Assembly: GCA_027064305.1 (NCBI GenBank) | Contig: JAMOPY010000033.1 | Span: 1 to 37,592, forward strand | DNA from: Methanobacteriota archaeon | GTDB taxonomy: Archaea > JAADCQ01 > Methanopyri > Methanopyrales > Methanopyraceae | Reading direction: 5' to 3' | DNA length: 37,592 nucleotides | Shown here: piece by piece, positions 4,311 through 7,769 of the stretch | How positions within the stretch are numbered: position 1 is the first letter of the stretch | How the letters are laid out: each line of letters opens with the position of its first letter | Translations under genes and position numbers: made by a program | Notes under the pieces: model-generated | Told to the model about the DNA's origin: nothing | Seen by the model: the letters and a program-made list of their open reading frames with translations, nothing else | Databases searched by the model: none

Positions 4311-6362
4311 CTACCCCCTCCGGGTCGACCGGGGCGCGGGGCGGACGCGCGCGGGGACGCGCTTGTACTCCGGGATCCCCGCCTCCGGATCGAGGACGTC
4401 CGGCGGGGTCAGCGCGTTCTCCCCGAAGTGGAACGGCGTGAAGATCACGCCCTCCCGCACCCGATCGGTGACCCGCGCGCGGCACCGCCACTCGCCGTAC
4501 GGAGTCTCGACGATCACCTCCTCGCCGTCCTTCACCCCGTAGCGCTCCGCGTCCCTCGGGTGGATCTCAACGAATGACCCCGGCACCTCGTCGTTCAGGA
4601 GCCGGGAGCGCCCCGTGATCGTCCTCGTGTGGTAGTGCGCGTACACGCGCCCGGTCGTGAGGATCAGCGGGTACTCCTCGTCCACGTCTTGCTCCGGCTC
4701 CCGGTACTCCACGTCCTCGGGCCTCGGGAACCGGGCCCGCCCGTCCTCGGTGGCGAACCTCTCGGTGTGCAGGATGGGCGTTCCCGGGTGGTCCTCGCTC
4801 GGGCACGGCCAGTGGATGCCGCCCGGTCGCCGTCGGAGCCGGTCGTACGTGATCCCCCGGTACTGCGGGATGACGCGCCGGATCTCCTCGAAGACCTCGC
4901 GCGGGGACCGGTGGCCGAAGCCCTTGAGCCCCAGCCGTCGGGCCACCGCCTCGAGGATCCACCAGTCGGGTCGGGCCTCGCCCGGTGGGTCCACGATCCG
5001 CTCCGAGAGCTGGACGCGCCGGTCGGTCGCCGTGAAGGTGCCCGTGCGCTCCGCCCAGCCGGCGGCGGGCAGGACCAGGTCCGCCAGCTCCGCCGTCTCC
5101 GTCAGGTACAGGTCCTGCACGACGAGGAACTCCAGGTTCCGGAGCTTCCTGACCGCGTGGCGCGAGTTCGGCTCCGAGACCGCCGGGTTCTCACCGAAGA
5201 CGTACATCGCCGCGATCTCGTCCGAGTCGAACGCCTCCGGGAGCCGGAGCCCGGGCTCCTCCGGCACCTCGAACCCCCAGAGCCGGGCCATCTCCTCCGC
5301 CGCCTCCGGACCGACCCGCCGGTACCCGGGGAAGTGCGTGGCCAGCGCGCCCGCGTCGCAGGCGCCCTGCACGTTGTTCTGCCCGCGGAGCGGGTTGACG
5401 CCGGTGCCGGGTCGGCCCACGTTACCCGTCAGCAGGGCGAGCGCGCAGAGGGCCCGCAGCGTCCGGCAGGCGATGTCGTGCTGCGTGAGCCCCATGCAGT
5501 AGACGATGCAGCCACGGTCCGCCTCCGCGTACCGCACGGCCGCCTCCCGGACGTCCTCCGGGTCCACCCCGGCGATCCTCCGGACATCCTCCTCCGAGAC
5601 CGCCCCGCGAACGTGCTCCGCGAACGCCTCGAACCCGGTGGTCCGCTCCTCGATGAACCCCTCGTCGTGCAGCCCCTCCTCCAGGATCACCCGGGCCATG
5701 TACAGGAACACGACCAGGTCGGACCGCGGTCGCACCCGCAGGTGCAGGTCCGCCAGCTCCGCCACCAGCGTGCGCCGCGGGTCCAGCACGATCAGGTCGG
5801 CGCCGTCCTCGACCCCCTCCACGATCCTACGGTACACGATCGGGTGCTGCTCCGCCGTGTTCGAGCCCGCGACCAGGTAACAGTCCGCCTCGGCGAGGTC
5901 CGGGATCGAGTTGGTCATCGCCCCCGAACCGAAGACCTCGGACAGCGCGACCACGGTCGGGGCGTGTCACAGCCGCGCGCAGTGGTCCACGTTGTTCGTC
6001 CCGAGCGCGCGGGCCAGCTTCTGCCCGACGTAGTTGTCCTCGTTCGTGGCCTTGGCCGAGGTGACGAAGTACACCTCCTCCGGCCCGTAGGACCCGAGGG
6101 CCTCCGCCACCTCCTCGAGCGCCCGGCTCCACGAGAGCTCACGCAGCTCGCCCGACTCGGTCACCCGCGCCGGCCGCTCCAGCCGGTCCCGCCGGAACGC
6201 CTCCGGAGCCTCCCAGAGCTTGATGCACTGACGGCCCTCGTTGACCGGGTGCCGCCGCCACGGCTCCAGGATCTTAACCTCCTCCCCGTCGGTCCCCACC
6301 AGGATGCCGCAGCCGCACCCGCAGAACGGGCACACCTGCGGCACGAACCGCAGCCGGGCCAC
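4311..6362 (-). CDS. fdhA: Formate dehydrogenase alpha subunit, selenocysteine-containing (in-frame UGA at 5967-5969, codon 132)
   Basis: ORFs 5967..6779 and 4311..5954 are in the same frame and join as [28 protein letters not shown]. N-terminal CPFCGCGC, PLRGQNNVQGACD, molybdopterin-binding C-terminus; GTG start after GGGGGGAG. Confidence 0.93.
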
Positions 6363-6460
6363 CGGGTGCTCCCCCCTAACCCGAGCGACGGGGGCGCCCC
6401 CGGACCCGGGTTTCGGCCGCGGTTCCCCCGGGCCCGAGCCCCCGCGTGCGGGGGCCCTTC

Positions 6461-6498
6461 GGACCGACGGTCCCCTGCTTCGGGGTTCCCGACGGCCC
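6461..6498 (-). promoter_or_regulatory. Archaeal SECIS element in the fdhA 5' leader
   Basis: gggccgucgg-GAA-CCCC-gaagca-GGGG-A-ccgucggucc: lower stem, GAA/A internal loop and short G-C upper stem, matching the archaeal SECIS consensus. Confidence 0.85.
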
Positions 6499-6758
6499 AC
6501 ACCGGGGGCGGCCCGGGTTCCCCGCGGCTTACTCCCCGGGCCCGGAGGGGCGTCCCCGGTGACCGACGGTGCCGCGCCGGCTAAGCCACTCCCGGACCCC
6601 TGGGAAACGAAAGCGTGAACGTGGTTTCGACTCCCTCGTTCGTCGACACCCAGTTGTCGGTTCCGCACTGATGCCATCCGGTGATGTGAAGGTCGTCGGG
6701 TTCCCCAGGGTGGAGGGGACTCCCGTTGCCCCGTGACGAGGGTGAGAAATCGGAGGAG

Positions 6759-7769
6759 ATGATCCTGTACGGCGTTCACACGACCTTCGAGGAGGTGGCC
6801 AAGGCGGCGGTTCCCAAGTTCAGGACGACCCCGGGCCGGCTGCTGTACGCCGGGTTCATGGCGGGAGCGTTCATCGCCTTCGGTTTCACGCTCGCTACCA
6901 TCGCGGCCTGCGTGGCGAAGTTCCCGCCCTACGCGGTCGGAGGCACGTTCAACCAGCCCCTGTTCAAGCTGCTACTCGGCGCCGTCTTCCCCATGGGCCT
7001 GATCGCGGTGGTCATTGCCGGGGCCGACCTGTGGACGGGGAACGTGCAGTCCCTCGGCTCGGCCAAGGGGATGGGGTACGCCGACTGGCGCCACGTGATT
7101 TACAACTGGTTCGGCAGCTACGGGGGCAACTTCATCGGGTCCATCTTCCTGGCGCTCATGGCGGTCCCGCTGACCGGGCTCTTTGGCACCACCGGGCACC
7201 CGAACCCCTTCGGCCAGGCCGCCGTATCGATCGCGCAGAAGAAGGCCTCGCTGGACGCGATCTCGCTGTTCTTCCGCGGGGTCGGGTGCAACTGGCTGGT
7301 GAACTTGGCGGTGTGGCAGGCGGCGCGCGTTAAGGACGGGGCCGGTAAGATCCTGGCGATCTGGTTCCCGATCTTCGCGTTCGTCGCGATCGGCTACGAG
7401 CACGCCATCGCCAACATGTGGGTCATCCCGACGGCCGTCTTCGCCAGCGCTCACAAGGTCACCTGGTCCCAGCTCTTTTACAACCTGATGCCGGTGACCC
7501 TGGGCAACGCCGTCGGCGGGTTCCTCTTCGTGCCGTTCTACTACTGGTACCTCGGGCACCCGGAGCTCAGTACCAAGCGCGTCTACCGCGAGCTGCTCGA
7601 CTTCGTCGCGGTGACCCTGCTGTTCTTCGCGCTGGCCGTGCTCGTCCCGGCCGGGATCGCGTACGGGCTCGAGGCCGCCCTGAGGAAGGCCGCCACGTAC
7701 GTCGTGCCGACGGTGGTCTCGGCCTACTACGCGGCCGGGACCTTCGCGCTCCGGAGGATCGCCCGGTAG
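6759..7769 (+). CDS. fdhC: Formate/nitrite transporter (FNT family)
   Basis: GFMAGAFIAFG, GADLWTGN, GNFIG, CNWLVNLAVW, GYEHAIANM, VTLGNAVGG; ATG after GGAGGAG. Confidence 0.9.
   Translation: MILYGVHTTFEEVAKAAVPKFRTTPGRLLYAGFMAGAFIAFGFTLATIAACVAKFPPYAVGGTFNQPLFKLLLGAVFPMGLIAVVIAGADLWTGNVQSLGSAKGMGYADWRHVIYNWFGSYGGNFIGSIFLALMAVPLTGLFGTTGHPNPFGQAAVSIAQKKASLDAISLFFRGVGCNWLVNLAVWQAARVKDGAGKILAIWFPIFAFVAIGYEHAIANMWVIPTAVFASAHKVTWSQLFYNLMPVTLGNAVGGFLFVPFYYWYLGHPELSTKRVYRELLDFVAVTLLFFALAVLVPAGIAYGLEAALRKAATYVVPTVVSAYYAAGTFALRRIAR

Follow-up and report, generated by a model that had tools for sequence, protein, structure and literature searches.

The DNA analyzed here, referred to as the window, comprises 37,592 nucleotides (nt) of contig JAMOPY010000033.1 (positions 1 to 37,592, forward strand; assembly GCA_027064305.1) from a Methanobacteriota archaeon of the Methanopyraceae. 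It is contig C33 of a 1.2-Mb genome of 50 contigs, labeled G000. The gene fdhA lies on its minus strand (4311 to 6362, GTG start at 6362) and encodes a molybdopterin-type formate dehydrogenase alpha subunit according to its Pfam domains (Molybdopterin, Molydop_binding, and Molybdop_Fe4S4). The coding sequence (CDS) contains an in-frame TGA for selenocysteine (Sec) at codon 132 (5969-5967) in the context CARL-U-HAPT. An RNA domain with the Sec insertion sequence (SECIS) sits in the intergenic leader of this Sec-type fdhA. Our conclusion, which we hold with a probability of about 0.7 for the structure and the Sec link together, is that the fdhA leader forms one long irregular hairpin with the SECIS at its tip and that this hairpin is tied to Sec decoding. 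Features below are on the minus strand unless stated otherwise.

The leader was searched in 21 genomes. Matches were obtained in five of five genomes of the same genus (G001 to G005) and in none of the 15 genomes from other families. Four of the five same-genus matches (G001, G002, G003, and G005) represent a full homologous leader, and the match in G004 is a SECIS elsewhere in the genome. The four leaders and that of the window were aligned with MAFFT (alignment A1) and form the set of five compared below. The homology of the five leaders sets in sharply where the 5' arm of the stem lies and stops at its 3' arm. The mean pairwise identity was 0.84 in the core, where 103 of 149 columns are invariant, compared with 0.35-0.41 in the adjoining leader segments. 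Within the initial 600 nt of fdhA, third codon positions had an identity of 0.74, and the core is conserved as strongly as coding sequence.

The core domain extends from 6544 to 6401 (~145 nt), or from 6557 to 6390 (~168 nt) with the outermost helix, P1. In P1, GGGGACGCCCC (6557-6547) pairs with GGGGCGCCCCC (6400-6390), as judged from pair counts in the alignment. The earlier note on this DNA had proposed this helix as the closure of the domain, and it is indeed present, although in G000, G005, and G003 only. The G003 version is a perfect helix of 14 base pairs (bp) with a different yet complementary sequence; no clear counterpart was seen in G001 and G002. P2 is formed by CGGGCCCGGG (6544-6535) and CCCGGGUCCG (6410-6401) and was found both by RNAalifold and in five of five single-sequence minimum free energy (MFE) folds. 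Compensatory cells in P2 were observed at column pairs 55-193 (C-G, A-U, G-U) and 57-191 (C-G, G-C) of alignment A1. Next follows an internal loop in which GAGUAA (6534-6529, holding AGUA) stands opposite CGAAA (6415-6411, holding GAA). Both strands are invariant in all five genomes, and they face each other as a 6x5 loop in the long-hairpin fold only. From its sequence, this loop looks like a loop E motif. P3 pairs GCCGCGG (6528-6522) with CCGCGGC (6422-6416), and all seven pairs are invariant in the five genomes. A second internal loop of 4x4 nt, GGAA (6521-6518) opposite GGAA (6426-6423), varies across species; G003 has GCGC opposite GCGG at this place, and these strands are mostly paired. 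P4 joins CCCGGGCC (6517-6510) to GGCCCGGG (6434-6427), with 100% of cells paired and three one-sided G-U changes.

The tip of the hairpin is a three-way junction of the closing helix P4, the SECIS arm with P5, and a companion hairpin. P5 (6506-6455) consists of CCC (6506-6504) paired with GGG (6457-6455) plus a GGUGU/GAA internal loop and encloses the SECIS hairpin. Its three pairs are kept in every cell with letters, and P5 was predicted by RNAalifold as well. The archaeal SECIS hairpin itself (6498-6461), located by a descriptor scan, has a lower stem, a GAA (6488-6486) opposite A, a clamp of CCCC with GGGG, and a loop of 6 nt. The lower stem shows pairing in 92% of its cells and a compensatory cell at columns 102-134; the upper part is invariant. 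The GAA opposite A is present in five of five leaders, the four clamp pairs never change, and the element lies in the 5' untranslated region (UTR) of a gene whose in-frame UGA is at a known Sec position, all of which are hallmarks of an archaeal SECIS. The companion hairpin CCCCCGC AC GCGGGGG (6454-6439) was recovered from the inverted-repeat listing, the alignment, and RNAalifold, and is shortened in G002 by a 6-nt deletion. Across the five species, the 6x5 loop and P3 are thus invariant, and P1, P2, P4, and the SECIS lower stem vary.

The same sequence had been interpreted earlier as two separate look-alike hairpins, A and B, on either side of the SECIS, with loop heptamers that pair as in a kissing-loop pseudoknot. 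The named parts are all there: the arms of hairpin A, GGCCCGGG/CCCGGGCC (6542-6535 and 6517-6510; 8 nt, 100% complementary), the arms of hairpin B (6435-6427 and 6410-6402), the heptamers GCCGCGG and CCGCGGC as exact reverse complements, and, between the arms, the SECIS and a gcccccgc/gcgggggc hairpin (6455-6438). The 5' and 3' arms of A are the 5' strands of P2 and P4, respectively, the 5' and 3' arms of B are the 3' strands of P4 and P2, and the heptamers are the two strands of P3. Both hairpins can be drawn in G000, where A is a perfect 8-bp stem, and the heptamers are invariant and flanked by purines. However, pairing of the arms in the MFE fold takes place across the SECIS, and RNAalifold, run with no structure supplied, returned P2, P3, P4, P5, the SECIS, and the companion hairpin in a consensus that lacks the two-hairpin fold. 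The single-sequence folds contained P2, the 6x5 loop, and P3 in five of five species and P4 in four of five.

Pair counts in the alignment favored the long hairpin as well. In this fold 93.5% of 276 cells are paired and seven pairs changed on both sides, a number reached by 1 of 500 shuffles; the covariation score of 0.132 was equaled by none of the 500. When the partner columns were shifted by one position in either direction, pairing fell to 58-60%. The twin-hairpin fold has 91.9% of cells paired, four covarying pairs, and a score of 0.083. The difference is clearest in the arms. P2 and P4, counted with eight pairs each, have 1 unpaired cell in 79 and three compensatory cells, whereas the stems of hairpins A and B have 7 unpaired cells in 84 and no compensatory cell. 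Complementarity between the 5' arm of A and the 3' arm of B is kept in all five leaders, as is that between the 3' arm of A and the 5' arm of B. The local hairpins carry a mismatch or bulge in each stem in three of the five species (G003, G002, and G001), and in these species the long-range helices have no break. The G003 leader lacks one C in the 5' arm of A and one G in the 3' arm of B; P2 stays perfect and both local hairpins gain a mismatch or bulge. The kissing-loop proposal was not supported, as its stems are neither conserved nor covarying. With regard to the loop-loop covariation suggested as a check on it, the loops are conserved, and the GCCGCGG/CCGCGGC pairing is invariant in five of five genomes and common to both folds, so it is uninformative on covariation and cannot discriminate between them.

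Energies of the arm duplexes were used as an alignment-free comparison. The long-range duplexes gave -48.5 kcal/mol in G000 and -40.9 kcal/mol in G005, essentially equal to the local ones at -47.5 and -39.0 kcal/mol, respectively. In the other three species the long-range pairing was favored (-57.6 versus -36.0 kcal/mol in G003, -47.5 versus -39.7 kcal/mol in G002, and -50.7 versus -36.9 kcal/mol in G001). Even with a kissing bonus of -14.1 kcal/mol, the twin-hairpin fold was 9.5-27.2 kcal/mol worse at 37 °C. At 98 °C, where the values come from extrapolated nearest-neighbor parameters, the isolated hairpins A and B had 0 to -2.8 kcal/mol, and the long stem or whole core -15.7 to -23.4 kcal/mol. 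Two kissing hairpins around the SECIS are quite unlikely. Their apparent presence is explained by the palindrome CCCGGG, on which both P2 and P4 are built and which allows each half of the stem to fold on itself. Switching of the palindromic arms between the long stem and a twin-hairpin form might occur.

The leader does not pair exceptionally well compared with shuffled sequence. The 241-nt leader folds with -158.6 kcal/mol. Dinucleotide-shuffled versions gave -151.25 ± 5 kcal/mol (z = -1.47), and among 200 of them 16 were at least as stable. In a sequence so rich in G+C, the pairings by themselves do not exceed chance. The case for the domain rests on conservation and covariation, not on stability. 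This bears on a further explanation, in which only the SECIS matters and the outer helices are incidental in a G+C-rich palindromic sequence that is conserved for another reason or by short divergence. In its favor, stability is no higher than that of shuffles, the string GGGCCCGGGG occurs 45 times in the genome, and no more than five related genomes are at hand. However, the flanks have dropped to 0.35-0.41 identity and the core holds 0.84, so divergence time was sufficient. The matched losses of one C and one G in G003 and the replacement of P1 in the same genome by a different complementary sequence also argue against it. We regard incidental outer helices as very unlikely.

The long hairpin proved specific for fdhA. 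A covariance model, R1, found one match per Sec-type genome at 124-134 bits. The next-best matches scored at most 34.6 bits and align the inner SECIS/companion part only, so the outer P2, the 6x5 loop, and P3 are unique to fdhA. The invariant 12-mers AGTAAGCCGCGG and CCGCGGCCGAAA, around heptamers A and B, respectively, each occur once in the 1.2-Mb genome, and a repeat or mobile element was rejected for this reason. Scans with the 14-mer GGAGTAAGCCGCGG, too short a pattern, in genome and metagenome contig collections matched at least 120 stretches each, and the matches listed were due to chance. Among them, five loci had the second motif within two mismatches, and none of these was a homologue. 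Seven Sec-type fdhA loci outside the genus were inspected by eye in the 140 nt upstream, and no G+C-rich stem like P2-P4 was seen there. These seven leaders are A+U-rich, and a SECIS was visible in four of them.

The link to Sec decoding was examined in the same genomes. TGA is present at codon 132 in all five leader-bearing orthologues. G004 encodes a single fdhA homologue with 61% amino acid identity, which has TGT for cysteine (Cys) at that codon, in the context CARL-C-HAPT (contig C90, L251:1100-2000, minus strand). No SECIS or domain was found upstream of this gene, and its contig had no match to R1. G004 keeps SECIS elements at other genes. It may represent a switch from Sec to Cys or a gene replacement. 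The domain is present where the UGA is present, absent where it is not, and found once per Sec-type genome.

These observations also bear on the view of the leader as a ligand-sensing or regulatory element, such as a riboswitch or thermometer, that controls fdhA translation in response to selenium, molybdenum, tungsten, or temperature. The leader is large, conserved, and adjoins the ribosome-binding site, and RNAalifold places a small helix over the Shine-Dalgarno (SD) sequence and pairs upstream bases with the start codon. However, a scan of 5800-7200 against Rfam at E values up to 10, with the Moco/Wco riboswitch included, gave three matches, all far below their gathering scores and none a riboswitch family, and nothing else in the analysis points to sensing of selenium, tungsten, or molybdenum. 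The linker next to the SD sequence is the least conserved part of the leader (0.41 identity). The outer helix said to reach the bases beside the SD sequence was not confirmed; in the RNAalifold consensus it takes the form of columns 31-36 paired with the start-codon columns 241-246. The upstream bases of this helix lack homology between species. In G002 they precede the start of the sole RNA contig that covers the leader and are probably not transcribed. The domain vanishes together with the UGA in G004, which connects it with Sec decoding and not with cofactor supply. A sensor function thus appears extremely improbable. Among the three Rfam matches, an H/ACA-like match on the plus strand was rejected at 18.9 bits versus a gathering score of 60. 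Another, a bacterial SECIS_3 match extending from the UGA codon (5972-5914), scored 15.6 bits versus 63 (E = 4.1) and is most likely due to chance in G+C-rich coding sequence.

RNA data were available for G002 and comprise four runs on two samples from one 2013 study. In run X2 an assembled contig (L005:1500-2048) is unbroken from the first G of P2 (1500) into the fdhA CDS. In the other three runs, contigs start at 1660, 1700, and 1783 and do not cover the domain, although missing coverage carries no weight as evidence. The domain is thus joined to the fdhA CDS in an RNA library, and there is a weak hint that the 5' end of the transcript lies at P2. By eye, each species appears to have a TATA-like box ~28 nt ahead of its first G-run. 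Upstream of the leader in G002, L005:1223-1440 is covered by abundant short RNA contigs (depth 48-270) with A/T tails. This region has box C/D-like strings (GATGAC ... CTGA) and may hold one or more C/D-box small RNAs; Rfam gave no more than a sub-threshold match to sR53 nearby (15.3 bits versus 49), and no tRNA was found.

The surroundings of the leader were inspected for other features. An SD-like run, GGGGGGAG (6376-6369), lies 6 nt upstream of the GTG in a conserved block and reads GGGGGUGAG in the other four species; it would serve as the Shine-Dalgarno sequence. The ribosome-binding site begins 14 nt past the end of P1 in G000. A formate/nitrite transporter gene, assigned by Pfam, is divergent from fdhA (6726-7769, plus strand), and G005 has the same neighbor. 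In G001, G002, and G003 the sequence upstream of the leader is unrelated, with the break in synteny exactly at the 5' edge of the RNA domain. The fdhA frame is open for 417 nt upstream of the GTG, across the entire leader (6779-5967), and automatic annotation could wrongly lengthen fdhA because of it. A coding leader was rejected, given indels of 1, 2, and 6 nt in the core and the non-homologous upstream sequence. A gene on the plus strand was likewise rejected: the many G-U pairs of the domain would become C-A mismatches on that strand. A tRNA search of the five fdhA loci detected no tRNA genes.

The SECIS of fdhA in this group has been recorded before. According to Peiter et al. (RNA Biol 2025, PMC11881835), Methanococcales have the fdhA1 SECIS in the 5' UTR, and it is functional there in a Methanococcus maripaludis reporter. 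Flanking stretches of 7 and 10 nt, which are longer in thermophiles, show complementarity to the open reading frame (ORF) 43 nt 3' of the UGA, and these tethers were not required in the reporter. Table S3 of the same paper lists Methanopyrus kandleri AV19 and Methanopyrus sp. KOL6 with a 5'-UTR fdhA SECIS and without ORF-complementary flanks, and for Methanopyrus the authors could "only speculate" on mRNA tertiary structure or unknown factors. In the full-text literature searched, to which subscription papers such as the early selenoproteome work do not belong, no description of the surrounding stem was found. The statement that the leader is not a described family is thus half right: the M. 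kandleri fdhA SECIS is already in that table, and the stem around it, with its invariant loop, appears to be new.

A tether of the Methanococcales type was considered for the window, with the SECIS flanks pairing to the CDS just 3' of the UGA and the self-paired stem as an alternative or resting state. Besides the precedent in PMC11881835, a long imperfect duplex is possible between the 3' flank and CDS nt 406-444, a segment that begins 10 nt past the UGA. The duplex energies are -55.1 kcal/mol in G000, -57.4 in G005, -65.2 in G003, where it is the best of all segments, -48.9 in G002, and -39.6 in G001. However, this G-rich flank pairs equally well or better with 3.3% of random genomic 40-mers. 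The segment 406-444 ranks first in one of the five species only and is at background level in G001. In G001 and G002, pairs of the duplex are lost through synonymous substitutions in the CDS, and the leader strand remains invariant and does not compensate. The 'No' scored for flanking sites in AV19 and KOL6 and the dispensable tethers in the reporter, both as given in PMC11881835, point the same way, and we regard the tether as very improbable.

A descriptor scan of the genome yielded seven SECIS candidates, including that of fdhA. One of them (C33:10914, minus strand), with GAA ... A and eight of nine lower-stem pairs, is apparently in coding sequence and probably a false hit. The remaining five lie at C1 (minus) 25247, C7 (plus) 17219, C32 (plus) 3391, C36 (minus) 56152, and C41 (minus) 236. 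Their design comprises GAUGA(C/G) on the 5' side and GGAU/GGAC on the 3' side of the stem, together with a basal helix; in many cases a short companion hairpin of G-C pairs, with a loop of the ACGC type, is also present. The SECIS at C7 stands in a three-way junction closed by CCCGGGCCGC/GCGGCCCGGG. Among the six elements, the SECIS hairpin of fdhA is predicted from nearest-neighbor estimates to be the weakest, with -25.5 kcal/mol at 37 °C versus -27.4 to -34.9 for the others, and 0.0 versus -4.5 to -9.0 kcal/mol at 98 °C.

A mechanism can be proposed for the long hairpin. The SECIS would recruit the Sec-specific elongation machinery to UGA132, by analogy with the 5'-UTR SECIS in Methanococcus as described in PMC11881835. 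The 25-30 additional G-C-rich bp could clamp the weak SECIS hairpin and keep it folded at the growth temperatures of Methanopyrus. These range from 84 to 110 °C. The outer stem may also hold the SECIS apart from the ribosome-binding site, and the invariant loop with P3 is probably recognized in a sequence-specific manner, by a protein or through a tertiary interaction. More specifically, the loop-E-like loop and P3 could be a docking site for a trans factor (a SECIS-binding factor, the Sec elongation factor, or the ribosome) that helps to reach the UGA ~400 nt downstream and replaces the ORF tether, an idea that we put forward tentatively and consider unlikely. The specific roles of the outer stem and of the invariant loop are less certain than the structure and its link to Sec. 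The earlier view of a structured RNA that presents the SECIS at high temperature is borne out as far as a conserved SECIS-presenting domain is concerned; a role in heat stability is plausible, given the predicted weakness of the fdhA SECIS hairpin on its own, and the tertiary kissing fold was not supported.

Several points weigh against the long hairpin and its tie to Sec decoding. The alignment holds five related sequences with little power for covariation, and kindred sequences can beat all shuffles even in the absence of structure. P3 and the loop-E-like loop never vary, so covariation cannot prove their pairing. In G000 and G005 the two-hairpin arms are energetically as good, the leader is no more stable than its shuffles, and the 98 °C energies are extrapolated. 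The assignment of the invariant loop to loop E depends on likeness to a consensus sequence. G004 is a single case with a divergent fdhA, possibly a replacement gene and not a Sec-to-Cys conversion. The other SECIS elements of the same organism presumably work without an outer stem. The RNA evidence consists of assembled contigs from one study, of which one run in four covers the domain, and contigs cannot fix a 5' end.

The stem bears directly on a question raised in the field, that of how an archaeal SECIS communicates with the ribosome, in which the 5'-UTR SECIS of fdhA is the odd case. To our knowledge, no archaeal SECIS-binding protein has been described. Being conserved and covarying over ~145 nt, with two segments that never change, it offers a concrete and mutable target for the published speculation on Methanopyrus. 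The stem could be used as bait in pull-downs, in constructs for the existing reporter, and as a substrate for probing.

The long hairpin can be compared with several known systems. The loop E or sarcin-ricin (bulged-G) consensus is AGUA opposite GAA. The invariant fdhA loop, G-AGUA-A opposite C-GAA-A, lies between two Watson-Crick helices in the orientation that the consensus requires; the likeness is one of sequence only. In kissing-loop complexes, complementary loop sequences pair between two hairpins. The fdhA leader likewise has two complementary, purine-flanked 7-mers, but the comparative data place them in P3, an ordinary helix of a continuous stem, and not in the loops of two separate hairpins.

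The 3'-UTR SECIS elements of methanogens, such as that of fruA, share the inner module of the fdhA domain, which consists of the lower stem, the GAA/A loop, the G-C clamp, and the companion hairpin. The fruA SECIS on contig C36 is closest to it, with 78% identity over 57 nt (model positions 36-108), and the junction of the C7 SECIS is closed by the same CCCGGGCC helix as P4 of fdhA. In contrast, P2, the loop-E-like loop, and P3 are found at fdhA only, and the lower stem of fdhA is mismatched. Opposite GAA, fdhA has AUGU or GUGU, whereas the 3'-UTR elements have GAUGA opposite GGAU/GGAC, a pattern that resembles the AUGA_GA core of eukaryotic SECIS elements. The strict AUGA/GA motif is present at other SECIS elements of the genome. 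A kink-turn or eukaryote-like core (AUGA opposite GA) was not found at fdhA, which has GGUGU (GAUGU in other species) opposite GAA. The GUGU/AUGU of fdhA agrees with PMC11227280, in which the AUGA_GA motif was reportedly not found in FdhA SECIS elements.

The fdhA1 SECIS of Methanococcales has the gene, the 5'-UTR position, the GAA/A hairpin, and conserved pairing flanks in common with Methanopyrus. In Methanococcales, however, the flanks pair with the ORF, whereas in Methanopyrus ~25-30 bp of the flanks pair with each other, including the invariant loop-E-like loop, and match the CDS no better than background. Two lineages would thus use distinct RNA architectures to meet the same challenge, that of a SECIS in the 5' UTR at high temperatures.

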